This document shows, piece by piece, positions 39,209-59,840 of a stretch of 64,000 nt of DNA (positions are counted from its first letter, which is position 1; the number at the start of each line of letters is the position of its first letter). Source of the DNA: an uncultured Actinomycetota bacterium (GTDB lineage Bacteria; Actinomycetota; Geothermincolia; Geothermincolales; RBG-13-55-18). The notes beneath the pieces are model-generated. The model ran no database searches. It saw only the letters and a program-made list of their open reading frames with translations, and was not told where the DNA came from. The position numbers and the translations under genes were made by a program. The DNA lies in NCBI GenBank assembly GCA_964510515.1, contig CAZEAU010000001.1:100503-164502 (forward strand). The letters run 5' to 3'.

Positions 39209-40528
39209 ATGGCGGAGATAGTCATCGCGCCGCTGACCCGCATCCATGGAAACGCGGCCGTGAGGGTTGTCCTGGACGAGGCCGGAGTGCCGCGTGAGGC
39301 CCACTTCCAGGCATTCGGCTATCGCGGCTTCGACCATATCGCGAGGGGCGCCCACATCGACAACCTGTGCTCGCTGGTTTCGCGCATCTGCGGGGGCGAT
39401 TCCCTCTTTCACCAGCTGGCAGCGGCCATGGCGGTGGAGAACGCGCTGGCGGTGGAGGTCCCCGAGGAAGCGAAGAGGCTGCGGGAGGCGGCCTTGTGGG
39501 GACAGCTCTTCGAGCGCCATGCCGTCTCCCTCACCGTGCACAGCCTGCCGGACCTGCTCTTTCCTTCATCGCACCCCGGCCTGCGCAACATCGTCAGCAT
39601 GCACCGCGTGGACGAGGAGATAGTGAAAAGGTTCATGGCGCTGAAGTCCCTGGGGACCAGGGTGGTGGAGGAGATCGGGGGCAGGGCGGTGCACCCGCTG
39701 AACTTCATGCCCGGCGGTGCGGCCAGGGACATCGATGCGGGGCGCAGGGAGGACTTGACGGCGCGGCTCAAACAGGCCATGCCCCCGCTCATAGAGACGG
39801 GACGCCTGGTCAAGCTGCTGCTGCGCAGGAACGAGGAAGCCGTCCACTCCCTGGGCGGGGAGGCGGCGCCTTGCCTTGCCCTGCGGGGAGAGAGGGGGGT
39901 GGCGGTGAGCGCGCCCCTGCTGGCGGTCACGGGCGCCGCCGGGAAAGACGTGGACTCGGTCGGGCCGGATGAGGCGGCGGGGAGGCTGGTGGAGAGCAAT
40001 TCCGCCCACTCCCACATCAGGAGGGTCGAGATCTCCGGGCTGGGCCGGGTCAGGGTGGGGCCGCTGGCGAGGCTCAACGTCAACCGCCGCTACGGGACCC
40101 CCCGCGCGGACGAAGAGCTGGAGGAGGTCAAGGCCCACTGGGGCTTCCCGCTTCACCGCAACATGACCTCGCACGCGGCGAGGATCCTGGAGATGATCCA
40201 TGCCTGCGAGAGGATGGTCGAACTCCTCGCATTTCCCGCCGCGAAGAGGACGCGGGAGACGCTTTCCCCCGGCGCCGGAAGCGGCGTGGCGGCGCTGGAG
40301 ACGCCGGAGGGGACGCTCGTCTACGCCGTTGCCCTGGACGACGCGGGGATGGTCAAGCGGCTGGCCATAACCTCTCCGCTTCAGTTCAACCTCTGGGCTC
40401 TGGAGAAAGCGGTGCTGGAGAGCGCGCGCAACGTCCCGGGGGGGGCGCAGGCGGGTGAGGGGGTGAGCGTCCTGCTGGAGACGGCGGTGCGCGCCTTCGC
40501 GCCCTGCGTTCCATGCGGGGTGCAGTGA
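39209..40528 (+). CDS. [NiFe]-hydrogenase large-subunit homologue with divergent metal-ligand motifs
   Basis: N-terminus IAPLTRIHGNAAVRV (in place of TRIEGH); L1 motif is SRICGGDSLFH (second Cys of RxCGxCxxxH replaced by Asp); C-terminus is FAPCVPCGVQ-stop (CxxC retained, Asp to Ala, no terminal His, no C-terminal extension); 439 aa. Confidence 0.65.
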   Translation: MAEIVIAPLTRIHGNAAVRVVLDEAGVPREAHFQAFGYRGFDHIARGAHIDNLCSLVSRICGGDSLFHQLAAAMAVENALAVEVPEEAKRLREAALWGQLFERHAVSLTVHSLPDLLFPSSHPGLRNIVSMHRVDEEIVKRFMALKSLGTRVVEEIGGRAVHPLNFMPGGAARDIDAGRREDLTARLKQAMPPLIETGRLVKLLLRRNEEAVHSLGGEAAPCLALRGERGVAVSAPLLAVTGAAGKDVDSVGPDEAAGRLVESNSAHSHIRRVEISGLGRVRVGPLARLNVNRRYGTPRADEELEEVKAHWGFPLHRNMTSHAARILEMIHACERMVELLAFPAAKRTRETLSPGAGSGVAALETPEGTLVYAVALDDAGMVKRLAITSPLQFNLWALEKAVLESARNVPGGAQAGEGVSVLLETAVRAFAPCVPCGVQ

Positions 40529-40561
40529 GCGGACGCGGGGAGGATAAGGAGAGATGACGGC

Positions 40562-40861
40562 GTGGAGGGCGCGAAGAGCATGAGCGCGGAGCAGGCACTG
40601 ATAGAGATCGACCGCGTGAGGTGCGTCGGATGCTTTGAATGCATCGATGTCTGCCCTCAGGTGGCCGACCTCGAGTTCCCGGTATTCGAGCCGGGACGCG
40701 ACGGCTTTCCCAAGGTGGTCAACGAGGGCAGCTGCATACGCTGCCTGAGCTGCGAGTACGCCTGCCGCGCGGAGGCGATAAGGGTCGGGGGCGGAAGCCG
40801 CGCCGACCGTCCCGGCAGGCTGGAGGCAGGGGCGGAGCGGAAATGCCGCTCCACGTTCTGA
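40562..40861 (+). CDS. 2x[4Fe-4S] ferredoxin
   Basis: Two CxxCxxCxxxCP motifs (CVGCFECIDVCP; CIRCLSCEYAC); GTG start after AGGATAAGGAGAG. Confidence 0.75.
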   Translation: MEGAKSMSAEQALIEIDRVRCVGCFECIDVCPQVADLEFPVFEPGRDGFPKVVNEGSCIRCLSCEYACRAEAIRVGGGSRADRPGRLEAGAERKCRSTF

Positions 40862-41145: not shown

Positions 41146-41499
41146 TTGCCCGATTTGAGAAAAGCCCTTGAGGAACTGGTCGCCACCGGGACCGTGCGTG
41201 CCGCCCTGGTGGTGGGGAGGGACGGCTTCATCATCGAGACGGCGGGAGAAGATGCGGCCCAACTCGAGGCCGTCGGCGCCATCGCGCCCAGCTCCCTGGG
41301 CGCCGCCGAGGTCATAGGCCTGGAGTTGGCGCAGGGCCCCATGGCCCAGGCGATGTTCGAGTTCGAGAAGGGCGCGATACTCATGAGCGCGGTGAGCGTG
41401 GATGCCATCCTCGTCTCCATCCTTCCCACGAGCGCGAACCTGGGCAAGGCGAGATACGAGATCCGCAAATATCTCCCCGCGATAGAGGCGTCCCTGTGA
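41146..41499 (+). CDS. Roadblock/LC7 (MglB/CvnB-like) domain protein 1
   Basis: 117 aa; TTG start after AGGAGG; LVVGRDGFIIETAGED...AAEVIGLELAQG...GAILMSAVSVDAILVSIL pattern of the Roadblock/LC7 fold. Confidence 0.75.
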   Translation: MPDLRKALEELVATGTVRAALVVGRDGFIIETAGEDAAQLEAVGAIAPSSLGAAEVIGLELAQGPMAQAMFEFEKGAILMSAVSVDAILVSILPTSANLGKARYEIRKYLPAIEASL

Positions 41500-41557: not shown

Positions 41558-41941
41558 ATGGTTTCGGAAAGAATAGAGAGGATGAACGCCGCCCTCAGGG
41601 ATCTGCGCTCGGGGATGCAGGAGATCGAGGCGGCCGTCCTCATCAGCGCGGACGCCATGGCCCTGGCTTCGGATATCTCCGACGAGGCCGACGAGGAGAT
41701 GATCGGCGCGCTTTCCGCCTCGGTGCTCGGCATGGGCGAGCGGGCGGCGCGCGACCTGAGGAGGGGTGAGCTCGAGCAGGTGTATATAAAGGGGGACCAG
41801 GGCTACCTTCTGCTCCTGCAATGCGGGCCCGATGCCCTTCTCTCCCTTCTGGTCAGGCCGGAAGCGAAGCTGGGCGTGGTCTTCATGGAGGGAAAACGGA
41901 CCGCCGAGGAGCTGGCAAGGCTTTTCGAGCGGGAGATTTGA
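41558..41941 (+). CDS. Roadblock/LC7 domain protein 2
   Basis: 127 aa; same architecture (AAVLISADAMALASDI...YIKGDQGYLLLLQCGPDALLSLLV). Confidence 0.75.
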   Translation: MVSERIERMNAALRDLRSGMQEIEAAVLISADAMALASDISDEADEEMIGALSASVLGMGERAARDLRRGELEQVYIKGDQGYLLLLQCGPDALLSLLVRPEAKLGVVFMEGKRTAEELARLFEREI

Positions 41942-41973
41942 CGCGACTGCTATTCGTATGGGAGGTCGATCGC

Positions 41974-42372
41974 TTGGCGGGTTCTAGGGAGGAGAGACTC
42001 AGGAGCGCTCTCAACGAACTGGTTTCGAGGTCCGCCGAAGTGGATGCGGCGGCCGTGGTGAGCATGGACGGCCTGGTCATGGCCTCGGTTCTTCCCAATA
42101 CCCTCGAGGAGGACAGGCTGGGGGCCATGTCGGCCGCGCTGCTCAGCCTCGGAGAGAGGACCTCCGAGGAGCTGGGCAGGGGAGAGCTCGCGCAGGTTTT
42201 CGTGGAGGGCAACGCGGGATACGTCTTCCTCATGGCCGCCGGGGAAGACGCGGTCCTGACCGCGCTGGTGCGCAAGGGGAGCAAGCTGGGCCTGGTCCTC
42301 TACGACGTCAAGGGGGCGGCTAAAAGGATAGCGGAGATCATAAAAGCGGAATTCCGCATCGAATACGATTGA
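41974..42372 (+). CDS. Roadblock/LC7 domain protein 3 (TTG start inferred; ORF track shows a longer frame from 41821)
   Basis: AAVVSMDGLVMASVLPN...VFVEGNAGYVFLMAAGEDAVLTALV; GGGAGG RBS 8 nt before the TTG at 41974. Confidence 0.65.
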   Translation: MAGSREERLRSALNELVSRSAEVDAAAVVSMDGLVMASVLPNTLEEDRLGAMSAALLSLGERTSEELGRGELAQVFVEGNAGYVFLMAAGEDAVLTALVRKGSKLGLVLYDVKGAAKRIAEIIKAEFRIEYD

Positions 42373-42468
42373 GGCGTTCCCCGGCGCGGAGCGCACGCGG
42401 GAGCGGGCGGCAGCGAAGAGTGGCAAGCCGGCTGGGATGAACGGCGCCAGGACGAGAGATGGTGTTGC

Positions 42469-45400
42469 ATGGCTTTGAAAGGTAGCTTGAAGGACTTCAG
42501 CATCCCCGACCTCTTCCAGTTGTTGAACTTCGGGAAGAAGAACGGGACGCTCAACCTCACGCGGGGACAGGCAAGAGGGTACATATGTTTCCGCAATGGC
42601 GAGGTCTTCTTCGCCACTACCAACTGGAAGAGGCAATCGCTTGGCCTCAAGCTGCTCAACGCCGGGATAGTGAGCAAGGCCCAGATCGACGAGGCGTTGC
42701 AGCTCCAGAGGACCTCGGCACGGGGGCAGCGCCTGGGGCAGCTGCTCATCCGCGAGGGCCATATCACCATGTCCCAGCTGGAAGTCTTTATAGAGGAACA
42801 AATACAGGATGCGGTTTTCGAGATGCTGCGCTGGACGGACGGCGACTTCGATTTCCAGCCGGGCGCAGTCTTCCCGGAAGAGGATATCGGCCTCTCCATA
42901 AGCACCGAGGAACTGATCATGGAGGGATCGAGGCGCCTGGACGAGTGGAACCGCATCGAGAAGAAGATCCCCAGCCTGGAGGCCGTGTTCAGGATGACAT
43001 CCATGCACGGAAGGGAGGCGGCGCAGATAAGCCTCACTCCCGAGGAGTGGATGGTCCTCACCCACGTGGACGGCGATAAGGACGTCAGGCAGATAGTCGA
43101 ACTCACCGGCATGAGCACTCTGCATGCCTGCAAGATACTCTACGGTCTCCTGGGGGCAGGGTTGCTGGAGAGTGTCGCCCCCGTCCAGGACGAGAAGGAG
43201 GCCGACCTCAGGCTGGGGAGGCTGGCGGAGGAATTGGAAAGAGCGGAGGAGGGGGCTGGAGAGCCGCCCGCCCCGGGCGAGGTCCCGGAGCTGGAGCCAG
43301 AACAGCTCGAGGTGCTCGCTCACGGGGGAGGCGCGGTGGCGGAAACGAAGGAGTCTGTGCCCCCCGCGACCACGGGAGAGGAATGGGAGGTAGCGGACGC
43401 CCTGGGCGAGGTGTTCGAAAGGCTGGAGGTGGCCGCGCAGGAGGATGTGCTCACGGCGGCTGACAGGGACGAGGCGGCGGAGCCCCACACTGCGGCGCCC
43501 GATGCGGAGGAAGCCGGGGCGCTCGCAATCGAGATAGGGGCCGAGGCGGGGGAGGAGATACTCGTCGAGGAGATCGTCTTTTCTCCGCCCGACGCGGGCC
43601 CCATTGAGGTGGAGGAAGCGGATGAGGCGGTGAGGGAGAGCGCGGCCGGCCTGCCTCCTGCCGGGGGGCCGGCCGAGGCGGGGATGCCGACCGCCGTGCC
43701 CTGGCTCCCGGGCTCGCGGCGCATCCTGGAGGAGGAGAAGCGGAAAGAGGAAGAGTATATCCGCAGGATGAAGGAAGCTGCCCTGGAGGACTCGGTGGAG
43801 TCGCAGGAGACGCTCAGGATCGACCGCAAGGAGGCCGAGCTGGAGGAGCTGAAAAAGAAGATCAGCTCTCTTCTCCCCGAGGGCATGGGGTTGGACGAGG
43901 TTGAGGAGGAGCCGCGCGAGGAGGCGCCGCAGCGGGCGCTCGACGAGAGCGCACAGAAGATCACGGGGGAGAGCGTTGAGGCCCGGGAAGCCAAGAGGGA
44001 GTACCTGGAGAAGAAATTCGGAAAAGCGGAGAAGCTTGCCGGGGAGGGCGAGATCGCGGGATCCGAACCCGAGGAGATCCCCGAGGAGTGGAAAAGCCAC
44101 CTGGAGAAGAGCGCGCCGAGGGAGCAAGGGGCCGACCTTTACGGGGCTCCGGCCGGGCGAGAAGGCGTGGGCATCGACTTGGAGAAGATCCTGGGCGGCG
44201 CCTTCCGGGGAGCGGCGGTCGCGGAGGGGGAAGGGGCGGAGCCGCAGGGGTTCACCGCCGCATGGGAGCCGCTGGAGGCCCCGAGGCAACCCGAGTGGAG
44301 CGGGGATGCTCCCGGTGGCGAGCACGCCGCGGCAGGAATCCTGGCGGAAGCGTGGGAGAGGCCCGCCGGGGGCGACGAAACCCTCGAGGACGCCATGATG
44401 ACCCCCGCCCTGGAGAGCATAATGCTCGAGGACCTGCCCGAGGGCACGGCCGCAGGCGTTGCCCCTATGGATGCCGCCGCGCTTCCAGCGGAGGCGGAGG
44501 AGGGAGCGGGAGAGCCGCCCATGGCGGCACCCCGGGATGCCTTGACCGAGCCCCCGGCGATGTCCATGCTCGAGAGGGCCATGCTGGAGGACATCTCCGC
44601 GGCCGAGACGCCGCTGCCGGGGGAGGACGTTTTTGCGCCGCAAGCGCAGCCGGAGGCGCTGTCGTCGGCCTCGCAGGAAACATTTTTCGAGATTGACGAG
44701 GACGTGCGGGCGGGCGTGGGGGGCGCGGCGGAAGCCCCACTGGAGGAGTCGTTCGCCGGGGAGCCGCATGAACTGCAGGTGGAGGCGGCGGGTGAGGGCC
44801 TCGAGTCACCGGGCTGCGTGGACTTCGCGGACGAGATAGCCGCCCTGGAAAAGGAGATGCTCGCCGAGCACGCCCTGCCGCATGAACTGAAGATGGAGGT
44901 GCCGCGGGAGGCGATGCCGCCCCAGACGATATTGCGCGGCGATGTGCCGCCCTCCCTGGAGGAACTGGACAAAGTGATCACCGCAGGCGAGGAGGAGACG
45001 CTGCCGGCAACCGAACCGGATGTGGCATCGCATGATGCATGGGGGAGGATGGCCGAGGAGGTGCGCGAAACGGGTTGGCCGCAAGGCGAGACCGATGCGC
45101 CTGCCCCTTACCGCCTTCTGGAGGAGCTGGCGGAGGCGGCCCCCGAGGACATATACATACCGCCGCCGCCTTTCGAGAGCGCCGAGCCCACCTATGCGCC
45201 GCCCATGCAGCAGATGCCGGAGCTAGAGATAAGCGAGCCGGAGTATGCGCCGCCGCCCATGCAGCAGATGCCGGAGCTCGAGGTGAGCGAGCCGGAGTAT
45301 GCGCCGCCCATGCAGCAGATGCCGGAGCTCGAGATGCCCGAGCCCATAGAGCGGCTGGAAGCGCTGGCGGAGGCCTCGGAGGTATCCCCCGAGGAGGCGT

Positions 45401-46020
45401 ATGTGCCGCCGCTGCTTCTGGAGAGCGCCGAGCCCACATATGCTGAGCCGGCGCAAGCGATGCCGGAGCTCGAGGCAAGCGAGCCGGAGTATGCGCCGCC
45501 ACCCATGCAGCAGATGCCGGAGCTCGAGATGCCCGAGCCCATAGAGCGGCTGGAAGCGCTGGCGGAGGCCTCGGAGGTATCCCCCGAGGAGGCGTATGTG
45601 CCGCCGCTGCTTCTGGAGAGCGCCGAGCCCACATATGCTGAGCCGGCGCAAGCGATGCCGGAGTTCGAGGTGAGCGAGCCGGAGTATGCGCCGCCGCCCC
45701 AAGGCCGCGAGACCGCGCCGGCCGCGGCCCCCACCGTGCCCCGCGAGGAAGGAGCGGGCGGGTATGCGGAGGAAGAGGGCTACGGCGAGGATCACGAATT
45801 TGATATGGGCAATTATTCCCTGGAGAGGGAGCTTGCGGAGCTCACCGGGGCCTCGATGCCGCAGCCGACAAAGAAAATAAAGATCCCGCTGAAGCCGAAA
45901 GGAGAAGACGGCGATGTGGAGGAAATAGATAAGGGCAAGCCGCTCCCGAAGGTTAAGCGGGATAAGGCGGTGACGAAGAGCATAATCATGCGCATCATTG
46001 ACGGCATCAAAAGACTGTAA
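42469..46020 (+). CDS. PATAN/DUF4388-domain protein with about 850-aa acidic Glu/Pro/Ala-rich low-complexity tail containing tandem repeats
   Basis: N-terminal about 110 aa ([49 protein letters not shown]) match DUF4388/PATAN; remainder E-rich with repeated EYAPP(P)MQQMPELE and two 65-aa near-identical units. Confidence 0.7.
45331..45720 (+). repeat. in-frame tandem direct repeat, 2 x 195 nt (about 95% identical over the first 170 nt), preceded by three 51-54-nt sub-repeats (about 45180-45340)
   Basis: gagatgcccgagcccatagagcggctggaagcgctggcggaggcctcggaggtatcccccgaggaggcgtatgtgccgccgctgcttctggagagcgccgagcccacatatgctgagccggcgcaagcgatgccggag occurs at 45331 and again at 45526. Confidence 0.85.
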
Positions 46021-46023
46021 GGG

Positions 46024-46566
46024 GTGGGTGCTCAATTGCGATCCTTCAAAATCGTAGTCACCGGGCCGTTCAGCGCGGGCAAGACGACCTTCATCAAGAG
46101 CGTGAGCGAGATATCCATCGTCTCCACGGAGAGGTCGATATCCGATTCCACGCGGCGCGTGAAAGCCGAGACGACGGTGGCCATGGACTTCGGCAGGATC
46201 ACCATCTCCAAAGACATCGTGCTCTATCTTTTCGGGACGCCGGGCCAGGAACGTTTCGATTTCATGTGGCAGATCCTTTCCGAAGGCATGCTGGGCTACA
46301 TCCTGATGCTCGACGCGAGCCGCCCGGAGACCTACGAGGAGGGAAAGCGCATACTGGAGTTTTTCGCAACTCTCTCGGAGGCGCCTTTCGTCGTCGGGGT
46401 GACCCGCATCGGGAGCGAGGGCGATGCCGCCGCGGTGGAGAGGATAAGGCAGGATATGAGCGTTGATGGAGATGTCCAGATCATACCCTGCGATACCAGA
46501 CAGAAAGAGGACGTGAAGAGAGTCCTCCTCAGCCTGCTCTACGACATACTCAAGACCCTCGACTGA
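46024..46566 (+). CDS. small Ras-like GTPase of the MglA/CvnD (conservon subunit D) family
   Basis: P-loop GPFSAGKTTF, TTVAMDFGRI switch I region, LFGTPGQERF switch II (DxxGQ); 180 aa; start 4 nt after the PATAN gene stop. Confidence 0.8.
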   Translation: MGAQLRSFKIVVTGPFSAGKTTFIKSVSEISIVSTERSISDSTRRVKAETTVAMDFGRITISKDIVLYLFGTPGQERFDFMWQILSEGMLGYILMLDASRPETYEEGKRILEFFATLSEAPFVVGVTRIGSEGDAAAVERIRQDMSVDGDVQIIPCDTRQKEDVKRVLLSLLYDILKTLD

Positions 46567-46641
46567 TCGGGCCCTCGCCCGGGATAGGCTGGCGCGGCAT
46601 GAGGCGCCGGGGGTAATGGCATGGGGGGACGCGGGGGGCAT

Positions 46642-47502
46642 ATGAGGATCAACGGCGAAACCCGACTGGTAGGCATCATCGGCCACGAGATCGGCTACAC
46701 CATGTCACCGGCGATGCACAATGCCGCGTTCGACGCACTGGGCATGAACTGGGCCTACGTCCCCCTGCGCGTCCCCCCGCAGCAGTTGCAGCCCGCCCTG
46801 CACGGTCTGCGCGCCTGCGGCTTCAGGGGATTCAACGTGACTATCCCCCACAAGGTGGAGAGCGTGCGTTATCTGGATGAGACCAGGGGGCCGTCTGCCT
46901 TGCTTGGGGCGGTCAACACCGTGGTCAACGAGGGGGGAAGGCTGCTCGGCTACAATACCGACGTCGAGGGCTTTCGCTCCTTCCTGGCTGAGGCCGGCGT
47001 GCCCGCGGGCGGCTCATGCGCGCTGCTCTTGGGCGCGGGCGGCGCGGCGCGCGCCGTCGCGCTCGCGCTGGCGCAGGCGGGAGCCGGGCGCATCTACGTC
47101 ATCAATCGCACGCCGCAGCGTGCGCAGGAGCTGGCGGCCCTGTTAAAGAGGGCGGCGCCGGGGACCGAGATATCTGTAAGGACGTACGACAGCGTGGGCT
47201 CGCTGGTCCTGCGGGAATGTGACCTGGCGATCAACTGTATCCCCGCCGCCGGCTCTGGGGGGGTGGCCCTGCCCCTGGACTACGAGGCTTTTGGCGAGGG
47301 GAAGTGGGCGATAGACATCGGGTATGCGGGGGCGGGGTCGGCATTCCTGAGGGAAGCCGCCGCTCGGGGGGCGAAGACGGCCGACGGCGCGGGCATGCTC
47401 GTCCACCAGGCCGCCGCCTCCTTTCGCCTGTGGACGGGAAGGCCGGCCCCGCTGGGCGAGATGAAGAGCGCCTGCCTCGGCGAGCCGGCCGGAGAAGGAT
47501 AA
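46642..47502 (+). CDS. aroE: shikimate dehydrogenase AroE
   Basis: LVGIIGHEIGYTMSPAMHNAAF...GFNVTIPHK...GYNTDVEGF...LLGAGGAARAV Rossmann motif. Confidence 0.92.
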   Translation: MRINGETRLVGIIGHEIGYTMSPAMHNAAFDALGMNWAYVPLRVPPQQLQPALHGLRACGFRGFNVTIPHKVESVRYLDETRGPSALLGAVNTVVNEGGRLLGYNTDVEGFRSFLAEAGVPAGGSCALLLGAGGAARAVALALAQAGAGRIYVINRTPQRAQELAALLKRAAPGTEISVRTYDSVGSLVLRECDLAINCIPAAGSGGVALPLDYEAFGEGKWAIDIGYAGAGSAFLREAAARGAKTADGAGMLVHQAAASFRLWTGRPAPLGEMKSACLGEPAGEG

Positions 47503-47521: not shown

Positions 47522-49189
47522 ATGCAGAAACCGAAGAAAGAAAAGCTGGGACAGATACTCATCAGGAACCGCATCATCGATGAAGAGCAGCTCCGGCAGG
47601 CCTTGGAGCGGCAGGCGGAGACGGGCGAATCGTTGGGCAGGGTTCTCATCGAATTGAAGATGGTGAGCGAGGGCGCCCTGACCTCCGTGCTCGCCCGCCA
47701 GATAGGGTTGAAATTCGCCGACCTCGGAACCTTCGACGTTGACATCTCCGCCTGCTCCCTGGTGAGCGCGGAGGTAGCCAGGCGCTACACCCTCATCCCG
47801 GTGGGCTTCAACGGGGACCGCCTGATGGTGGCCATGGCCGACCCCACCAACGTCTTCGCCCTGGACGACGTCCGTATCATGACCGGGATGCAGGTCGAGC
47901 CGCTCGTGGCCACCAAGGAGGATATCGTCGCCGCCATCAACCGCTACTGCCGCTCGGATACGGACATGGACATAACCACGGAAGATTTGGTGGAGGGCGA
48001 GGTGGAGGAGGACGTCGAAGCGGTTGTCGATGACGCTCCCATAGTGAAGTACGTGAACCTGCTCATCTCCGAGGCGGTCAACGACCGCGCCGCGGACGTG
48101 CACATAGAGCCCATGGAGCATGACGTGAGGGTGCGCTTCCGCATCGACGGGGTGCTGCACGAGATACGCAGGAATCCCAGGCAGATCCACCCCGGCGTGG
48201 TGGCCAGGATAAAGGTCATGGCGGACATGAACATAGCGGAGAAGCGCCTGCCCCAGGACGGCAGGGCTTCGGTGGACATCAGGGGCAAACAGATCGACCT
48301 GCGCGTGGCCTCGCTTCCCACCATACACGGCGAAAAGGTGGTGCTGCGCGTCCTCGACAAGAGCGCATCGCTGATGAGCCTGCAGGACCTGGGTTTCAGC
48401 GAGGACATCCTGGAGGTGTATTCGCGCAGCTTCCACAAGCCCTACGGCACCATCCTGGTCACCGGCCCCACCGGCAGCGGCAAGACCACCACCCTCTACG
48501 CCACCCTCAACGTGCTCAACAGCATCAAGCAGAACATCATCACCGTGGAGGACCCGGTGGAGTATCGCCTGCCCCTCATCAATCAGGTGCAGGTGCATTA
48601 CAAGGCCGGCCTGACCTTCAGCGCCGCGCTGCGCTCCATCCTGAGATGCGACCCCGATATCGTCATGATCGGCGAGATCCGCGACCCGGAATCAGCCCAG
48701 ATAGCCATCGAGTCGGCGCTTACCGGGCATCTCGTCCTCTCAACCCTGCATACCAACGACGCCCCCAGCGCGCTGACCCGCCTGCTGGAGATGGGCATAG
48801 AGCCTTTCCTCATCGCATCGGCGGTGGACTGCGTGAGCTCGCAGAGGCTGGCGCGAAAGCTGTGCGAGCGCTGCAAGGAGGCCTATGAGCCCGACCCGGA
48901 ATACCTGGAGAAGGTCAGGTTCAGCTGGGAAAACGGGCAGGAAAGAGTCCTTTACCGGCCCAGAGGCTGCCCCGCCTGCAACAACACCGGCTACAAGGGA
49001 AGGGTGGGCGTTTACGAGGTGCTGGAGGTTACGGAGGATATAGAACGCCTGGTGGCCAAGAACGCCCCCCACGTCGAGATCGCCGCGGCGGCGCGCGCGG
49101 AGGGGATGAGGACCATGCGTGAAGAGGGCTTCGTCAAGGTCAGGGAGGGCATGACTTACATCGACGAGGTCTTGAGGGTCATCATGTGA
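47522..49189 (+). CDS. pilB: type IV pilus assembly (extension) ATPase PilB/GspE family
   Basis: N-terminal GSPII domain, Walker A GPTGSGKTT, Asp/His boxes, C-terminal tetracysteine CPAC...zinc motif. Confidence 0.92.
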   Translation: MQKPKKEKLGQILIRNRIIDEEQLRQALERQAETGESLGRVLIELKMVSEGALTSVLARQIGLKFADLGTFDVDISACSLVSAEVARRYTLIPVGFNGDRLMVAMADPTNVFALDDVRIMTGMQVEPLVATKEDIVAAINRYCRSDTDMDITTEDLVEGEVEEDVEAVVDDAPIVKYVNLLISEAVNDRAADVHIEPMEHDVRVRFRIDGVLHEIRRNPRQIHPGVVARIKVMADMNIAEKRLPQDGRASVDIRGKQIDLRVASLPTIHGEKVVLRVLDKSASLMSLQDLGFSEDILEVYSRSFHKPYGTILVTGPTGSGKTTTLYATLNVLNSIKQNIITVEDPVEYRLPLINQVQVHYKAGLTFSAALRSILRCDPDIVMIGEIRDPESAQIAIESALTGHLVLSTLHTNDAPSALTRLLEMGIEPFLIASAVDCVSSQRLARKLCERCKEAYEPDPEYLEKVRFSWENGQERVLYRPRGCPACNNTGYKGRVGVYEVLEVTEDIERLVAKNAPHVEIAAAARAEGMRTMREEGFVKVREGMTYIDEVLRVIM

Positions 49190-49408
49190 GGGGTCATCAT
49201 CTGAGCGCGCCCGCATATTGGGGTGAAAGAATCGGCGTCCGCGGCCGATATCAAGATGGGACGGGCAGGCAGGCGGCCGCGCAGCACAACCTGGGAACAT
49301 GGAGCGGGGCGGGTGGGAGGAGCGCTCTTCCCCACACGGCCCAAGGGTACGGCCCGAGCACACGGCCCGAGCGCACGGTACGGGAGGAACGGGAGAGGAG
49401 GAAGGGCT

Positions 49409-50473
49409 TTGACCAAGCTTGATATCAATGAGCTTCTGGAAGAGGTGCTGGTGAGGGGGGCCTCCGACCTGCACCTCACCGTCGGGACCCCGCCGGTCAT
49501 GCGCATCAACGGCACCCTTATGCGCCTGGAGGAATATCCTCGCCTTACATCCAACGATACCCGCGACATGGTCTACAGCATACTCGCCGCGAGGCAGAGG
49601 GAGCAGTTGGAGAGCAACCTCGAATACGATCTCTCCTACTCGGTGCCCGGAAGCGCGCGTTTCCGCGTCAACGCCTATTTTCAGAGGAACAGCATCGGGG
49701 CGGCCTTCCGCATCATCCCCTATCGCATCAAGTCGGTGGAGGAGCTGCAGCTCCCCCAGGTCATCCACGAGTTCTGCATGCTGCCGCGCGGCTTCGTCCT
49801 CGTCACCGGGCCGACCGGTCAGGGCAAGTCCACCTCGCTCGCGGCCATGATCAACATCATCAACGAGACCCGCAACCTGCATATCATCACCGTCGAGGAC
49901 CCCATTGAGTTCCTGCACGTGCACAAGAGTTGCATCGTGAACCAGAGGGAGGTGGGGGGGGACACGCATTCCTTTTCCAATGCTCTCAAGTACGTCCTGC
50001 GCCAGGATCCGGACGTCATCCTGGTGGGCGAGATGAGGGACCTGGAGACCATCTCCACCGCGCTCACCGCGGCGGAGACCGGGCACCTGGTGTTCGCGAC
50101 CCTGCATACCCAGGACGCTCCGCAGACCATAGACCGCATCATCGACGTCTTTCCCACCTATCAGCAGCAGCAGGTGCGTATGCAGCTGGCCAGCACCATA
50201 CAGGCCATTGTCACCCAACAGCTCCTGCCCACTAAGGACGGGCAGTCCCGCATACCGGCGGTGGAGGTGATGGTGGCGACCTCGGCCATCCGCAACCTCA
50301 TCCGCGAGGCCAAGGCGCACCAGATATATTCCTCCATGCAGGCGGGAGGGCAGTACAAGATGCAGACCATGGACCACTCCATCGCGGCGCTCTTCAAGCG
50401 CGGGCTGGTCTCCTACGAGGTGGCCATGGCGAGGTGCAGCAACCGCGAGGAGATGGAGCGGCTGATCGGCTGA
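49409..50473 (+). CDS. pilT: type IV pilus retraction ATPase PilT (TTG start after GGAGAGGAGGAAGGG)
   Basis: LEEVLVRGASDLHLTVGTPPVMRINGTL, Walker A GPTGQGKST, AIRNLIRE motif. Confidence 0.92.
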   Translation: MTKLDINELLEEVLVRGASDLHLTVGTPPVMRINGTLMRLEEYPRLTSNDTRDMVYSILAARQREQLESNLEYDLSYSVPGSARFRVNAYFQRNSIGAAFRIIPYRIKSVEELQLPQVIHEFCMLPRGFVLVTGPTGQGKSTSLAAMINIINETRNLHIITVEDPIEFLHVHKSCIVNQREVGGDTHSFSNALKYVLRQDPDVILVGEMRDLETISTALTAAETGHLVFATLHTQDAPQTIDRIIDVFPTYQQQQVRMQLASTIQAIVTQQLLPTKDGQSRIPAVEVMVATSAIRNLIREAKAHQIYSSMQAGGQYKMQTMDHSIAALFKRGLVSYEVAMARCSNREEMERLIG

Positions 50474-50540
50474 CGGCGGCATGTCCGCCGCGGGAGGTCC
50501 CCGTTCGCCGGGGAAGGTGATCGGCGGGGCGTGCTAGAAT

Positions 50541-50549
50541 CTCTTTGAA
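50541..50549 (+). promoter_or_regulatory. candidate extended -10 promoter element (TGcTAGAAT) upstream of pilC
   Basis: Read directly in the pilT-pilC gap. Confidence 0.2.
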
Positions 50550-50715
50550 AGGAAAGCTTCGCCGGGGGTAAAGAAATGGGGCGCCGGGAACGATACTAAT
50601 TGCGGTCGGTTGACGGCGGCGGCGGTGCGGAGATAGAAGCGGCCCGGATGCGCGCGAGATGACGGCGAAAGGATGTCCTCAAGCGTTCGGAAGCGCCGAG
50701 AAAAGGAGAGAGGCG

Positions 50716-51939
50716 GTGGCTCAAACCTATTCATACAAGGTGAGGGACCGGCAGGGCAAGGTCATCTCCGGCAAGCTCGAGGCGGAAAACGTGAGCACCG
50801 TATCGCAGCGCCTGCGCGAGATGGGCTATTTCGTCATCGAGGTCGAGGAGGAGAAGGTATCCCTGGGCAAGAAGGAGCTGCACATCTTCAAGCCCAAGGT
50901 CAAGGGCAAGGACATCACCATCTTCACCCGCCAGTTCGCGACCATGATCAACGCCGGCCTGCCCCTGGTGAAATGCCTGAACATCCTCTCGGAGCAGACG
51001 GAGAGCCCGGTGCTCACGGAGGTCATCTCGGACGTGCAGCACGAGGTGGAGATGGGGCGCTCCCTCTCTGAGGCCATGGCCAAGCACCCCGAGGTCTTCA
51101 AGGAGCTGTACTCCAGCATGGTCAAGGCGGGAGAGATAGGCGGCGTGCTCGACGACGTGCTGCTGCGCATAGCCACCACCCTGGAGAGCGAGGACGAGAT
51201 CCGGCGCCGCATCAAATCGGCATTGACCTATCCCATAGCCATGCTGGGCATATCCGCCCTGCTCCTGGTGGTGATGCTCGTCTTCGTGGTGCCCACCTTC
51301 GAGAAGATGTTCGCGGACATGGGGGCGACGATGCCCATCCTGACCAGGGTTATCATGAGCTTCAGCAATTTCCTGGTGAGCTGGAAGGGGGCGCTGTTCA
51401 TACTGGCCGTGATAGGGGGCGTGTTGCTCCTGCGCCGCTGGATCAAGACGCCGGGCGGCCGCAAGAAACTCGACGCCGTGAAGCTGAAGATGCCCGTATT
51501 CGGGGACCTGTTCCACAAGATGTCCCTCTCCCGCTTCTCCCGCACCCTGGGGACACTGGTGGCCAGCGGCGTGCCCATTCTGCAGGCCCTGGAGATAACC
51601 TCGAAGACGGTGGGGAATGTGCTGGTGGCGGAGGCCGTGGACAACGTTCGTGCGGGGGTCAAGGAGGGGGACTCCATCGCCAGGCCCCTGGGCCAGAGCG
51701 ATCTCTTCCCCCCCATGGTGACCCAGATGCTGGCCATCGGGGAGGAGACCGGAGCCCTGGATACCATGCTCAACAAGGTCTCGGACTTCTACGACTCGGA
51801 GATCTCCTCGACCGTCGAGGCGCTGACCTCCCTGCTGGAGCCGCTGATGATCGTCGTTCTGGGCCTGGTCGTGGGGATCATCGTCATCGCCCTCTATATG
51901 CCGATATTCTCGATGATAACCCAGTTTACCGGGGAGTAG
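50716..51939 (+). CDS. pilC: type IV pilus inner-membrane platform protein PilC/GspF family (GTG start)
   Basis: Two T2SSF repeats, full-length PilC similarity. Confidence 0.9.
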   Translation: MAQTYSYKVRDRQGKVISGKLEAENVSTVSQRLREMGYFVIEVEEEKVSLGKKELHIFKPKVKGKDITIFTRQFATMINAGLPLVKCLNILSEQTESPVLTEVISDVQHEVEMGRSLSEAMAKHPEVFKELYSSMVKAGEIGGVLDDVLLRIATTLESEDEIRRRIKSALTYPIAMLGISALLLVVMLVFVVPTFEKMFADMGATMPILTRVIMSFSNFLVSWKGALFILAVIGGVLLLRRWIKTPGGRKKLDAVKLKMPVFGDLFHKMSLSRFSRTLGTLVASGVPILQALEITSKTVGNVLVAEAVDNVRAGVKEGDSIARPLGQSDLFPPMVTQMLAIGEETGALDTMLNKVSDFYDSEISSTVEALTSLLEPLMIVVLGLVVGIIVIALYMPIFSMITQFTGE

Positions 51940-52008
51940 CGAGCGACCTTGCCGGCGGGCCCGCGGCGGGGGAAGGTTTCGGACGAAGGTTGTTGAAAGA
52001 GTATATTA

Positions 52009-52038
52009 TTGACAACTAAATTTTATTACTTATAGAAT
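52009..52038 (+). promoter_or_regulatory. candidate strong sigma70 promoter (TTGACA-18 nt-TAGAAT) in an approximately 130-nt AT-rich island
   Basis: Perfect -35 hexamer; island (gttgttgaaagagtatattattgacaactaaattttattacttatagaatattgatg...) contrasts with the roughly 68% GC background; upstream of the HTH gene and pilMNO. Confidence 0.4.
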
Positions 52039-52172
52039 ATTGATGAAGAGTGAAGAAATTCAAATGAAGCTAAAGTTGGTTGAAGATGTTGGCGATGAAG
52101 TATATTGGCCTGTGGAGTTGGGTATTGTTGAGGTGGGCCGGGGCGGAGAGGCTATCGCTGACAGGAGGATAG

Positions 52173-52361
52173 GTGCCGGGGGACAGGTTCAGCAACAAAC
52201 TGCTAACGGTGAACGAGGTCGCCGATATCTTGAGGGTGTCGAACATGACGGTGTACCGCCTGGTGAAGAGCGGGCAGATACCAGCCATACGGGTAGGCAA
52301 GAACTACCGCATCAAGGAAAGCGACGTCAACGATTACCTGACCAGAGGGACGCAGAGTTAG
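52173..52361 (+). CDS. small helix-turn-helix DNA-binding protein (excisionase/MerR-type HTH_17 family)
   Basis: 62 aa; LLTVNEVADILRVSNMTVYRLVKSGQIPAIRVGKNYRIKESDVNDYL is the excisionase-family HTH signature; GTG start after AGGAGG. Confidence 0.6.
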   Translation: MPGDRFSNKLLTVNEVADILRVSNMTVYRLVKSGQIPAIRVGKNYRIKESDVNDYLTRGTQS

Positions 52362-52383
52362 GGCCTGGAGCGGGGGGTATGGC

Positions 52384-53445
52384 ATGAGTCCAAGGAAGGC
52401 CGCGGTATCGCTGGGGCTGGATATAAGCACGAGTTCGCTCAAGGTGGCCGAGGTGACGGCGGGCAAGGGCGAGCCCGTCCTCTCCAACCTGGGCATGGTA
52501 CGCATCCCGGACGGCGTGGTGCGAGACGGCGAGGTCGAGGACGGCGTGACCCTGGCCGAATCACTGAAGGAGCTGTGGTCCCAGGCCGGCATCAGGGGGA
52601 AAACGGTCATACTTGGCATCGCCAACCAGAGGGTCATCGTGCGCCCCATCGAGCTGCCCTACATGGAGAGAGAGGAGCTGGACAGCGCCCTGCGCTTCCA
52701 GGTGCAGGAGTTCATCCCCATCCCCATCGAGGACGCCATCCTGGACTTCGACATCATCGAGGAGTTCATGACCGCGGAAGAGGAGCGCATGCTGACGGTG
52801 CTCCTGGTGGCCGCGCACAAGGAGATGATACAGAGTTTCATCGAGGTCTTGAAGGCGGCCGGATTGTCGCTTTCCGCCATCGACCTCAAGGCCTTCGCCG
52901 TTCCGCGCGCCTTGATCCCCCTGGGGGTGCTGCAGGCGGGGTACGAGGAGCGCGAGGCGGAATGCATGATCAACGTGGGCGCGGGCATGACCAATATAAC
53001 CATCCTCAAGGACAACGTGCCGCGTTTCGCCAGGTTCCTCCTCAGGGGTGGGGACGATTTCGTGCGCGCCATGGTCAACCGCCTGGACATGGAGTGGGAG
53101 GAGGCGGAAGCGATCAGGCTGGGCAGGGTGGTGCACGATGAGGGCGGCAAGGTGCTGGAGCAGGAGATCCTCAACTTCGTGGGTGAGATCAGGCGCTCCA
53201 TAGATTATTATATAGCCCAGACCCAGGAGAGGGCCTTTTCCAAGGTGGTGCTCTCCGGCAGCGGCTCGGTCACGGTCAACCTGGTGCAGGAGATGGGCAA
53301 GGGGCTCAGGCTCCCCATGGAGGTGGGGAGGCCCCTTCAGAACCTGCAGCTGGGCAGGTTGCCCTATAGCGCGGAGGAGTTGATGGAGATAGAACCCTCG
53401 CTCGCGGTCAGCGTCGGGCTTGCGCTGCGGGAGGTAGTGGAATGA
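52384..53445 (+). CDS. pilM: type IV pilus assembly protein PilM (actin-like ATPase fold)
   Basis: Full-length PilM similarity (SLGLDISTSSLKVAEV...VILGIANQRVIVRPIELP). Confidence 0.88.
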   Translation: MSPRKAAVSLGLDISTSSLKVAEVTAGKGEPVLSNLGMVRIPDGVVRDGEVEDGVTLAESLKELWSQAGIRGKTVILGIANQRVIVRPIELPYMEREELDSALRFQVQEFIPIPIEDAILDFDIIEEFMTAEEERMLTVLLVAAHKEMIQSFIEVLKAAGLSLSAIDLKAFAVPRALIPLGVLQAGYEEREAECMINVGAGMTNITILKDNVPRFARFLLRGGDDFVRAMVNRLDMEWEEAEAIRLGRVVHDEGGKVLEQEILNFVGEIRRSIDYYIAQTQERAFSKVVLSGSGSVTVNLVQEMGKGLRLPMEVGRPLQNLQLGRLPYSAEELMEIEPSLAVSVGLALREVVE

Positions 53446-54293
53446 CCAGGATAAACCTGCTCCCACCGGAGATAAGGGAGAAGGCCGGGCGAGTCCGGCT
53501 CGCGCCGTGGTACATACTCATGGGCGTGATCACCGTGGCCGTCGTCGTGGGGCTCTTCCTGCTCTTCAGCGCCCAGGAAGCGGGCAAAGAGGATACGCTG
53601 AAGGAGAGGGAACAGGAGCTCTCGGACCTGCAGAAACAGACCAAGCCCATGGAGAAGTTCGAGGCGCAGCAGGGCGAGCTGCAGGCGCTGGAGGGCCTGT
53701 ACAAGCAGGCCAACGCGGGCAGGGTGGCCTGGGCGCAGATGCTGAACGACCTGGCCATGTACGTGCCGGAGGGCCTGGCCACGGCGTCCAACCCCAGGGC
53801 GCCGGCCATCTGGCTGGTGCACATGACCATCGACGCCCAGCCGCTGGAGGCGCTGGCGGGGGCGCCGGAAGGCCAGGCGACGGGCGGCGGCACGCCGATA
53901 GTGCTGGAGGGCTACGCCACCCCGGCCTGGCTGAGCGTGCAGACCTGGCTGCCGCGGGCGAGCGATTTCAAGGCGAGGGGCTTCCTGGACTCCTACCCCT
54001 ACTACTACTATTTCCGCGGCCACCCCAAGGTGGCGGAGTTCTTCGTCAGGCTGCAGGGCATGGAGCAATGGGCCGACATCTGGATAGTGAGCTCCACCCA
54101 GGCCACCATCAGCGAGACGAGGCATGTGACTAATCCCGAGAGCGGGGAGCGGGAGGAAGAGAGCTTCTCGGACTGGGCCGTCAGCTTCGCCATCAACGCC
54201 GATTGGAATCCCGACAGCGCCATCTGGCACGGGACCGCGGGCGGGGAGGACGCGGTCGCGCCGAGCGAGGAGACGGGGGGTGGCGAGCGATGA
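53442..54293 (+). CDS. pilN: PilN-like fimbrial assembly protein (elongated, 283 aa)
   Basis: MTRINLLPPEIREK N-terminus, single TM, coiled coil; overlaps pilM and pilO by 4 nt. Confidence 0.75.
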   Translation: MTRINLLPPEIREKAGRVRLAPWYILMGVITVAVVVGLFLLFSAQEAGKEDTLKEREQELSDLQKQTKPMEKFEAQQGELQALEGLYKQANAGRVAWAQMLNDLAMYVPEGLATASNPRAPAIWLVHMTIDAQPLEALAGAPEGQATGGGTPIVLEGYATPAWLSVQTWLPRASDFKARGFLDSYPYYYYFRGHPKVAEFFVRLQGMEQWADIWIVSSTQATISETRHVTNPESGEREEESFSDWAVSFAINADWNPDSAIWHGTAGGEDAVAPSEETGGGER

Positions 54294-54868
54294 AGATCAA
54301 GGCCGGCTCGGGGATATGGCTGCTGGCGGGGGTGCTGGTGTGCATAATCATCCTCGTCCTCGCGCTTTTCCTCATCGTCTTTCCCCAGAAGAACAAGGTG
54401 GGCGAGACCGAGGAGGAGATAAACAGGGTGGAGCAGAGCATAGTCCTGGAGCGCAACCGCCTGGTGCAGTTAAAGCAGTACGAGCAAGACCCGGAGCAGT
54501 TCATCCGCCAGATAGAGGTCTTCAAGGAACGCATGCCGGAGAACGTGGGGCTCGCCGACATCATCGAGTACATAGATCGCGCCGCGGAGGAGGCGGGACT
54601 GGACTTCGTCTCCATAACGCCGCAGCTCCCGGTGTCCGCGGGGGGCTTCTACACCGTCAGCTTGGAGACCGTTTTCAACGGGCGCTATTTCAACCTGGTG
54701 GAGTTCTTCAACCGCATCGAGAGGCTTCCGCGCTCCTTCAAGGCCGTCTATGTAGATATCGCGGCCGGCGATGCCGGCCTGCCTTATATCCAGGTGAACG
54801 TGCGTTTCAGGGCTTTTTTCACCACCAACCAGGGGATAGAGGGCCTGGCTGGGGCAGCGGCGGGCTAA
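54290..54868 (+). CDS. pilO: PilO-like pilus assembly protein
   Basis: N-terminal TM plus coiled coil plus C-terminal ferredoxin-like PilO domain; position after pilN. Confidence 0.7.
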   Translation: MKIKAGSGIWLLAGVLVCIIILVLALFLIVFPQKNKVGETEEEINRVEQSIVLERNRLVQLKQYEQDPEQFIRQIEVFKERMPENVGLADIIEYIDRAAEEAGLDFVSITPQLPVSAGGFYTVSLETVFNGRYFNLVEFFNRIERLPRSFKAVYVDIAAGDAGLPYIQVNVRFRAFFTTNQGIEGLAGAAAG

Positions 54869-54872
54869 AAGG

Positions 54873-55610
54873 GTGACCACGATGAGAAAGAGATGCGAGA
54901 TGGCGGAGAGGGGACGGGCCGGAGGGCCGGGTGCCGGAGACGGCAGGGCGGAGGACGCCTCTGGGCAGCGGGTGCGCCTGCTGGCCGGGATGGTGCTGGC
55001 CACGCTGGTCATCGCCGTGCTGGTGATGGCGGCGAACCCCGGCGCGGGGGGGAAGAAGGGCGTGCTGCTCTCCCAGGCCATGCCCGCGGAGAAGGCGGCG
55101 CTGGTGATCGACTCCCAGGCCCTGGCGACCAGGGTGGTGGAGCAGAAGTTCCAGCTGCGCACGGAGGAGGCGGACGGGCAGCTGGAGGAGATACCCTACG
55201 TGGAGGTGTGGGTGCTCAACGACCCCTTCTACCCCCTCATGGGAGAGGCCGGGGACCTGAGGAGCTCCGAGGGCGCCCTGGCGAGCAAGGAATGGCAGAT
55301 GCGCGGCTTTCCCGATTACGAGGCGGGGCAGGGGACGGGTTCCGGAGCGCCCGCAGCGGCGCCCTCCGGCAGCCTGCCCGTGACCGCGAGCGTGCCGCAG
55401 AGGGTGGTGCTGGTGCAGGAGATATACGAGATAAGGGGCATACGCTACGCCAACCTGAAGGTGAACGACCAGGTTTACGACAAGCTGAAGGCGGGGAGCG
55501 ATTTCGGCGAGGTCTTCAGGGTGCAGGAGATAAAGGACGCCCGCACGGTGGTCGTGCTCTGCGGGGACGAGAACTACGAGCTCAAGCTCAATCAGCTGAG
55601 AAAGATCTGA
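54873..55610 (+). CDS. hypothetical protein, possible PilP analogue (TM/signal-anchor plus Gly/Ala-rich linker plus beta-rich C-domain)
   Basis: Position immediately after pilO; no recognisable catalytic motifs. Confidence 0.4.
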   Translation: MTTMRKRCEMAERGRAGGPGAGDGRAEDASGQRVRLLAGMVLATLVIAVLVMAANPGAGGKKGVLLSQAMPAEKAALVIDSQALATRVVEQKFQLRTEEADGQLEEIPYVEVWVLNDPFYPLMGEAGDLRSSEGALASKEWQMRGFPDYEAGQGTGSGAPAAAPSGSLPVTASVPQRVVLVQEIYEIRGIRYANLKVNDQVYDKLKAGSDFGEVFRVQEIKDARTVVVLCGDENYELKLNQLRKI

Positions 55611-59738: not shown

Positions 59739-59840
59739 CGGATATGAGATATGAGAAGAGATTTTGATGACAAACGGGGTTATCGTGCAGGCAAACATCA
59801 GCATCGGGGGCTTCGGGCAAAAAGGGAGGCGGTTCCTTTG

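Follow-up and report, generated by a model that had tools for sequence, protein, structure and literature searches.

Regulators of the PatA type (PatA, PixG, PixE and LsiR of cyanobacteria, and SgnC of Myxococcus) begin with a PATAN/DUF4388 domain that holds an α-helical insertion of two repeats, and they are genetically linked to type IV pili. PATAN genes have been described next to genes for MglA- and MglB-like proteins (Makarova et al., 2006; Wuichet and Søgaard-Andersen, PMC4316618), and in Synechocystis PixE's PATAN domain binds the N-terminal domains of PilB1 and PilC and suffices for output (bioRxiv 10.1101/2021.06.11.447907). The same head, insertion, pilus linkage and MglA/MglB-like neighbours are found in the gene described here, which occupies positions 42469-46020 on the forward strand of a 64,000-nucleotide (nt) stretch of DNA, hereafter the window, from an uncultured Actinomycetota bacterium (GTDB lineage Geothermincolia; Geothermincolales; RBG-13-55-18; assembly GCA_964510515.1, contig CAZEAU010000001.1, positions 100,503 to 164,502). 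PatA-type regulators carry a C-terminal receiver (REC) domain, whereas this protein has instead an acidic linker of roughly 875 amino acids (aa) and a family-specific C-terminal module, and its host phylum is Actinomycetota. It is proposed, with about an even chance of being right, that the protein is a flexible, multivalent cytoplasmic scaffold, analogous to RomR or HubP, that would tie the type IV pilus motor and cyclic di-GMP (c-di-GMP) to a GTPase polarity module.

RomR, the MglA polarity scaffold of Myxococcus and Bdellovibrio, consists of a REC domain, a non-conserved unstructured linker whose length and composition are conserved by taxon, and a conserved helical C-terminus, and it binds MglA and MglB (PMC3441718). 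The window protein follows the same three-part logic, and MglA-like and MglB-like genes lie next to its gene; it differs from RomR in having PATAN in place of REC and a linker of several times the length that is strongly acidic where that of RomR is mainly proline-rich, and no RomX-like gene was identified at the locus. HubP and FimV contain an unstructured region in the cytoplasm that is acidic (25% acidic residues, isoelectric point (pI) 3.5-3.75) and whose acidic repeats differ between close species in number, length and composition, and FimV is needed for type IV pilus function (PMC12918733). The polar landmark proteins HubP, FimV and TspA share with the window protein a long acidic region with imperfect, variable repeats and a small conserved C-terminal element, which is client-binding in the landmark proteins, but their signal peptide, LysM domain, transmembrane (TM) segment and FimV TPR domain are missing here as judged by Pfam and hydropathy; the sequences are unrelated and the likeness is convergent. 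PopZ, which organises polar condensates in Caulobacter, likewise has an acidic, proline-rich disordered linker that keeps its composition rather than its sequence and is flanked by helical interaction elements, but the PopZ linker measures about 80-90 aa and is narrowly distributed in length (PMC9512792), while that of the present family ranges from 200 to 1230 aa and is highly variable.

Two further systems bear on the locus. The MshEN receptors of c-di-GMP (MshE, PilB, PilF and NfrB) are built on tandem 24-residue motifs of the form [R]LGxxhhxxGhhxxxxhxxxhxxQ, two of which define the domain (Wang et al., PMC5013675), and in the known receptors this domain sits N-terminal of an ATPase, whereas here a motif pair of the same kind is lodged inside PATAN. 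The actinobacterial conservon (CvnA-D, or Mfp) is an operon of Actinomycetota that shares a Roadblock/MglB-like gene and a small MglA-family GTPase (ATP_bind_1) with the window; its histidine kinase CvnA and its CvnC (DUF742) were found neither among the neighbouring open reading frames (ORFs) scanned nor in the gene tables of the homologous loci, their place being taken by the PATAN-acidic scaffold, and the window cassette is embedded among pilus genes. The individual ingredients of the protein are already known. The combination of a PATAN domain with an MshEN-type insertion, a 200-1230-aa repeat-prone acidic linker, a private C-terminal module and a fixed position between Roadblock and GTPase genes in the pilus clusters of Actinomycetota appears to be new; it was not found in the searched literature that mentions DUF4388.

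Architecture of the protein family

The gene is an ATG-initiated ORF with a 1183-aa product, and an identical protein is present in public data (P0001). It represents an undescribed family with a folded head, a long acidic linker and a small conserved C-terminal piece. A protein search gave 85 clusters of 693-1465 aa, all with a PATAN head and an acidic tail, the net charge of the tail ranging from -44 to -273. By tblastn in the GTDB species set, with one genome per species, relatives turned up in at least 126 species genomes; the 80 loci retrieved belong to Ca. Geothermincolia (Ca. Solincola, Ca. Geothermincola and Anoxymicrobiaceae) and to basal Coriobacteriia (Anaerosomatales, strain EMTCatB1), and acidic residues make up 14-38% of the tail in these loci. 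The closest relatives group the window with Ca. Solincola and the Geothermincolales, and among the locus records L052, 'Coriobacteriaceae bacterium EMTCatB1', is alone in carrying no MAG (metagenome-assembled genome) or uncultured label. The features of the window gene are as follows, with structural evidence taken from an AlphaFold2 (AF2) model, built with a 62-sequence alignment, and its predicted local distance difference test (pLDDT) scores, and with repeats called by Tandem Repeats Finder (TRF).

42469-46020 (+), whole gene: PATAN, acidic disordered linker and conserved C-terminal module (ORF, P0001, 84 homologous clusters)
42478-42951 (+), PATAN/DUF4388 domain, aa 4-161 (Pfam PF14332, E 6.8e-37, full model coverage; pLDDT 80-94)
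42637-42801 (+), MshEN-type c-di-GMP motif pair inserted in PATAN, aa 57-111 (two 24-residue motifs, 7-aa spacer)
43015-43176 (+), winged-helix-like domain, aa 183-236
43177-45804 (+), acidic Pro/Ala/Gly-rich linker, mostly disordered, aa 237-1112 (composition, pI, pLDDT, low identity)
43714-43872 (+), long charged helix, aa 416-468 (pLDDT about 88-92; conserved within the Solincola-type subfamily)
44056-44109 (+), conserved short motif, aa 530-547 (P534, P538, E540 and L545 at least 90% conserved in the 62-sequence alignment)
44404-44592 (+), helical motif hLExhMLEDhP, twice, aa 646-656 and 698-708 (short AF2 helices at 646-653 and 698-706)
45103-45708 (+), repeat region, aa 879-1080 (unit map, TRF; family-wide column conservation about 0; pI 3.0-3.3)
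45302-45699 (+), recent tandem duplication with a period of 195 nt, or 65 aa (copies 45302-45504 and 45497-45699)
45805-46017 (+), conserved C-terminal module, aa 1113-1183 (conservation, profile search, AF2 helices)

The head (aa 1-236) is folded and comprises PATAN with its MshEN-type insertion followed by the winged-helix-like domain; pLDDT is 80-94 across aa 1-262, and the N-terminal domain is 84-90% identical to its closest homologues. The PATAN assignment, already made in an initial annotation of the window from sequence alone, is secure (126.6 bits against a cutoff of 25, with profile positions 1-122 covered by aa 4-161), and a Pfam scan of the protein gave no match to REC (PF00072) at E <= 0.01. 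Within PATAN, the model places helices at 58-64, 70-82, 89-95 and 101-120, which form two repeated helix-hairpin units matching the N-domain of MshE. The insertion scores 40.5 bits (cutoff 38) with the NCBIfam model of an MshE-related c-di-GMP-binding motif (NF053729) and matches MshE (5HTL) both by sequence (E 3e-6) and by structure, and its second motif is canonical save for a His at one hydrophobic position.

At the other end of the protein, the conserved module consists of a conserved 15-residue motif followed by a basic Pro/Lys stretch and then by a terminal helix, with AF2 helices at 1118-1126 and 1170-1182 (the latter at pLDDT 84), and its last 53 aa have a pI above 10 and a charge of +7. 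It is 80-92% identical to close homologues and recognisable in 135 of 154 family proteins, its Coriobacteriia form reading ...ISTDAFLxxF...LxDELxALTG...RDxxVDKxLVxKIIEGIxxL. The L.DELxALTG part bears a possible likeness to the EIDAL-type CheY-binding peptide of FliM/CheC. The C-terminus had no match in Pfam or NCBIfam, the FimV TPR domain included. A profile of the module returned only 55 matches among 1.84e9 representative proteins, and the strong ones (E <= 1e-10) finish at the C-terminus or a few residues from it; since the matches are family members or fragments of them, apart from P0117 and P0131, the module is a private signature of the family. A word-indexed search with the C-terminal profile likewise returned only fragments of the same family. 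P0131, a protein with HhH repeats (E 2.6e-4), was rejected as a further carrier, the match being weak and spurious. P0117 (767 aa) joins an N-terminal Mut7-C RNase domain to a 113-bit match to the module and may be a true domain swap or a gene-calling artefact.

The stretch separating these two conserved ends makes up 74% of the protein, and 744 of the 1183 residues (63%) have pLDDT below 50, so that the share of low complexity given in the initial annotation, about 72%, was a fair approximation. The linker itself (E 20.9%, A 15.9%, P 12.0%, G 7.4%) contains 25% E+D and 6% K+R, as against 12.8% and 11.5% in 12 neighbouring proteins pooled for comparison; its net charge is about -160, or -0.19 per residue, its pLDDT is mostly below 50, and in 77% of its 40-aa windows the sequence entropy lies under the 5th percentile of PilB. 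A pI well below 4 had been predicted for the protein, which is true of the repeat region only; depending on the pK set, the linker has a pI of 3.7-4.1 and the whole protein one of 3.9-4.2. The region is acidic and mostly disordered, as had been described, but it is an internal linker ending in the conserved basic module of 70 aa rather than a tail, and it holds conserved structured elements in the form of short helices but no structured domain.

Ordered islands punctuate the linker, the model showing helices at 306-330, 416-468, 503-516, 539-548, 786-800 and 960-969. The conserved motif at aa 530-547 is confined to Geothermincolia, whose members have its IPxEW motif, while the Coriobacteriia members are without it. 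The hLExhMLEDhP motif occurs twice in homologues also, and P0019 shows an expansion with a 46-aa period. A third, amphipathic helix of the type PEPhxhLExhhEAPE is present in one to five copies in 19 members of the closest subfamily and three times in the window protein (aa 879, 957 and 1022); the pattern PEP..LLE..APE was matched 31 times in real tails and never in shuffled ones.

Several other candidates for the nature of the ORF were set aside. A secreted or cell-wall acidic repeat protein is ruled out, as the product is without a signal peptide or TM segment (maximum 19-residue Kyte-Doolittle hydropathy 1.35 over the whole protein) and its neighbours are cytoplasmic. The antisense ORFs at 41950-44769 (-), 939 aa, and 45223-46686 (-), 487 aa, are not genes, conservation, domains and synteny all lying on the plus strand; such long shadow ORFs are expected because the opposite strand is GC-rich coding sequence rich in GAG and GCC. 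A Foldseek search of the full-length model against the PDB gave no match at E <= 0.001, as one would expect when most of the model is disordered.

Repeat expansion within the linker

The repeat region of the window gene can be written as B0-x0-A1-A2-B1-A3-B2-A4, where unit A is SEPEYAPP(P)MQQMPELEx (17-18 aa, four copies) and unit B has 47 aa. TRF detects significant periodicity, namely one of 195 nt (45267-45695; 2.2 copies, 96% matches, score 814) and one of 51/54 nt (45193-45344; 2.9 copies). The two copies of the 195-nt unit differ at 5 of 203 nt (97.5% identity), two of the five differences being synonymous, and share an exact run of 162 nt (45307-45468 = 45502-45663); a chance match has a probability of about 1e-90 per offset. 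The 65-aa (two copies) and 17-18-aa (four copies) duplications are, to judge from these sequences, recent replication-slippage or unequal-recombination events. The recent duplication announced in the initial annotation is thereby borne out, with corrections of detail: blocks of about 95% identity over 170 nt had been placed at 45331-45525 and 45526-45720, where identity is 90% (176/195) because the last ~22 nt diverge, although the core is even closer than had been stated; and EYAPP(P)MQQMPELE, reported at least five times, occurs exactly three times, or four with TYAPP, reaching six to seven when two degenerate copies and a truncated one (EYAPPPQGR) are counted. The motif copies at aa 957 and 1022 arose by the 195-nt duplication, the duplicated unit contains the PEP..LLE..APE motif, and AF2 predicts a helix at 960-969. 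Since the unit carries a helical motif, its duplication alters motif valency in addition to length.

Related proteins behave alike. Near-perfect internal duplications, with periods of 13-281 aa and differing sequences, are present in 25 of the 36 closest homologues, many of them 100-170 aa ahead of the C-terminus, where the window protein has its own; the segment just 5' of the C-terminal module is a family-wide hot spot of expansion and contraction in which duplications have arisen independently. The length polymorphism that had been anticipated is found among relatives: P0004 (1142 aa) and P0093 (1223 aa), which fall into one 90%-identity cluster, hardly differ except that repeats at the homologous site are expanded by 81 aa, and in a third metagenome-assembled genome (MAG) of the cluster the gene is split at the repeat site. 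A contig end falls inside the tail in 15 of 84 loci (L007, L009, L013, L016, L018-L021, L023, L025, L032, L040, L063, L067 and L072), with 10 of 21 in the closest subfamily, and two of these contigs stop in (PE)n runs; further genes are broken in the tail in L015 and in P0092 plus P0094. Such contig ends fit repeats that break short-read assemblies, and with its genes so systematically broken in short-read MAGs the family is under-annotated.

These data bear on what the linker does. It could be a passive spacer or entropic bristle, which would separate the conserved ends or repel anionic surfaces such as the membrane or nucleoid, with repeats that are neutral slippage. Linker sequence drifts fast while acidity stays, identity being 25-35% to the closest homologues and about 10% family-wide (7-25% to the closest homologues for the repeat region), and the differing repeat periods and sequences between lineages, together with a column conservation of about 0 in the repeat region, agree with this explanation. 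It is nevertheless unlikely: short helical motifs are conserved above background, as in the four positions of aa 530-547, the PEP..LLE..APE pattern is absent from shuffled tails, hLExhMLEDhP is found twice, and the recent duplication copies a motif.

Slightly less likely still is a condensate hub analogous to PopZ or HubP, in which helices would self-associate, the acidic linker would tune fluidity and repeat number would tune material properties. Phase separation, which had been suggested in the initial annotation, is plausible by analogy with these two proteins. The acidic, proline-rich disordered region of PopZ tunes its condensates, with linker length and helix valency both mattering (PMC9512792), the acidic repeats of HubP vary in number (PMC12918733), and the window protein offers multivalent helical motifs, a long charged helix at 416-468 and a basic C-terminal stretch (+7) that could pair with the linker. 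However, no oligomerisation domain was identified in the protein, and at about -160 per chain the charge makes homotypic condensation unlikely unless multivalent cations or a polycationic partner are at hand; no such partner is encoded nearby, the neighbouring proteins all being mildly acidic.

There is only a slim chance that the copy number in the window is in part an assembly artefact, the true gene having another count of 195-nt units. The family derives from metagenome assemblies, in which loci break in the tail as described and several genes are split or frameshifted. On the other hand, the two copies differ at five positions and their flanks are unique, which implies at least two genuine copies, and the ORF is intact, with the well-conserved C-terminal module in frame. 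Scans of metagenome contigs for copy number in the same species, using the exact 26-mer of the window repeat and a degenerate PMQQMPELE pattern, gave 0 matches.

Genomic setting

The PATAN-acidic gene stands between Roadblock genes and a small GTPase gene, upstream of type IV pilus genes:

41146-41499, 41558-41941 and ~41956-42372 (+), three Roadblock/LC7 (MglB-like) genes, directly upstream (Pfam PF03259, E 5e-11, 5e-15 and 1.6e-17)
46024-46566 (+), small Ras-superfamily (MglA-like) GTPase (Pfam ATP_bind_1 60 bits, Ras 26 bits)
47522-53445 (+), type IV pilus genes downstream: PilB 47522-49189 (MshEN and T2SSE), PilT 49223-50473, PilC 50659-51939 and PilM 52384-53445 (Pfam)

The association with a GTPase, noted from the start, is close: the junction at 46018-46026 reads TAA GGG GTG, and because the GTG start of the GTPase gene is one codon past the PATAN stop and in the same frame, tight translational coupling is suggested. 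An in-frame TTG at 46036 is an alternative GTPase start. The order Roadblock (one to three genes), PATAN-acidic gene, GTPase is kept in nearly every locus with intact flanks, the GTPase ORF lying -1 to +47 nt from the PATAN-acidic gene in nearly all loci and the Roadblock copy number (three, two or one) depending on the clade; the exceptions are two loci without a detectable Roadblock gene and a few in which the GTPase is not adjacent or is displaced by a frameshift. The cassette sits in a pilB/pilT/pilC/pilin cluster, also in the loci of distant homologues.

This setting leaves it highly improbable that the polyanionic tail mimics nucleic acids or tubulin tails, by competing with DNA or RNA or by imitating acidic tubulin C-termini, as the initial annotation had ventured: the negative charge density is high and the winged-helix-like domain could in principle be auto-inhibited by a polyanionic tail, but the genes conserved next to it serve the pilus motor or encode GTPase and Roadblock proteins rather than nucleic-acid enzymes, no tubulin- or FtsZ-modifying context is present, and the Glu residues are interspersed with Pro, Ala and Leu, unlike the known compact surfaces of DNA mimics.

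Other genes of the region were recorded. Shikimate genes (aroE, 46621-47502; chorismate synthase, 55683-56840; 3-dehydroquinate synthase, 57172-58506) are interleaved with the pilus genes, and in nearly all related loci aroE adjoins pilB. Directly 5' of the Roadblock genes (39209-40861) are genes for a protein like the NiFe-hydrogenase large subunit and for a 2x[4Fe-4S] ferredoxin, an arrangement that recurs in a distant relative (L001, 7398-9057). The pilus region further contains ORFs of 115, 283, 198, 245 and 730 aa without a Pfam match (52040-52387, 53442-55610 and 59751-61943), of which the small ones may encode pilin and PilN/PilO-like proteins.

A candidate scaffold for pilus positioning

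For the proposed scaffold, the following mode of action can be envisaged. By analogy with the PatA-type regulators of cyanobacteria, the PATAN head would dock on the pilus extension motor PilB/PilC, and the pilB/pilT/pilC synteny supports such a predicted interaction here; the head might in addition sense c-di-GMP through its MshEN-type insertion. The linker would serve as an expanded tether on which several short amphipathic helices are presented as motifs, part of them in variable copy number, and duplications would change both its length and the number of PEPhxhLExhhEAPE-type motifs. The C-terminal module would provide the other docking site, whose most likely clients are the MglA-like GTPase encoded alongside, the Roadblock proteins or both; the conserved adjacency of the Roadblock and GTPase genes supports such a predicted contact. 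Together with its partners, the protein would set where or when pili assemble, comparable to RomR with MglA and MglB in Myxococcus and to HubP/FimV at proteobacterial poles. What the sequences show is the anatomy, the predicted disorder, the pattern of conservation, the synteny, the recurrence of duplications and a length polymorphism in a sister lineage; the binding partners, the binding of c-di-GMP and the polarity function are all things that we infer.

Several observations weigh against the scaffold in this form. The Roadblock proteins fall under the cutoff of the MglB model, the first of them being a weak NF052242 match (23.8 bits), and the GTPase is only distantly MglA-like: MglA of T. 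thermophilus (3T12) is matched at E 1.5e-4, with the P-loop and TPGQ motifs lining up, and Rab12 is an equally good match. The G4 motif of the GTPase (46384-46410, GTPase aa 121-129) is TRIG in the window and its subfamily rather than NKxD, while elsewhere among loci L005-L084 it is TRAD in Anoxymicrobiaceae and the canonical NKVD in Coriobacteriia. In the insertion, motif 1 begins with SLG instead of RLG, a Ser that lies outside even the relaxed pattern [RKPN], and the motifs are joined by a spacer of 7 residues as against 5 in MshEN; the corresponding Arg stacks on guanine in MshE, and because of the Ser-for-Arg exchange and the longer spacer, the insertion may bind c-di-GMP weakly or no longer at all. 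The terminal helix has no more than moderate amphipathicity (hydrophobic moment 0.26-0.51), and its target could be a protein or the membrane. Finally, the sequences of the family all stem from MAGs, in which assembly can get the number of repeat copies wrong. That the module ends in an amphipathic helix for membrane targeting is kept as a minor possibility only, in view of the moderate hydrophobic moment and of the very polar versions in Anoxymicrobiaceae.

A more far-reaching version of the scaffold proposal is possible but tentative, namely that the cassette is an undescribed machine for type IV pilus polarity or positioning in monoderm Actinomycetota, perhaps gated by c-di-GMP, in which the scaffold would wrap or tether Roadblock dimers and the GTPase. 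A eukaryotic parallel is LAMTOR1, a largely unstructured protein that organises Roadblock dimers and Rag GTPases, and the core of the PATAN head resembles the longin-type platforms of NPRL2/NPRL3. Were the cassette such a machine, changes in repeat number would tune valency between strains.

The family offers a natural test case for how selection acts on the length and charge of a bacterial scaffold's linker and on its motif valency. The cassette also joins PATAN output domains, c-di-GMP sensing of the MshEN type and switches of the MglA/MglB type, which are usually studied apart; what connects them is an acidic disordered region of exceptional length, in which the number of motif copies shifts over very short evolutionary times. 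Almost all that is understood of how small GTPases control type IV pili in space comes from Myxococcus and a few other Proteobacteria, and the cassette would be the first candidate for GTPase-controlled pilus positioning in Actinomycetota.

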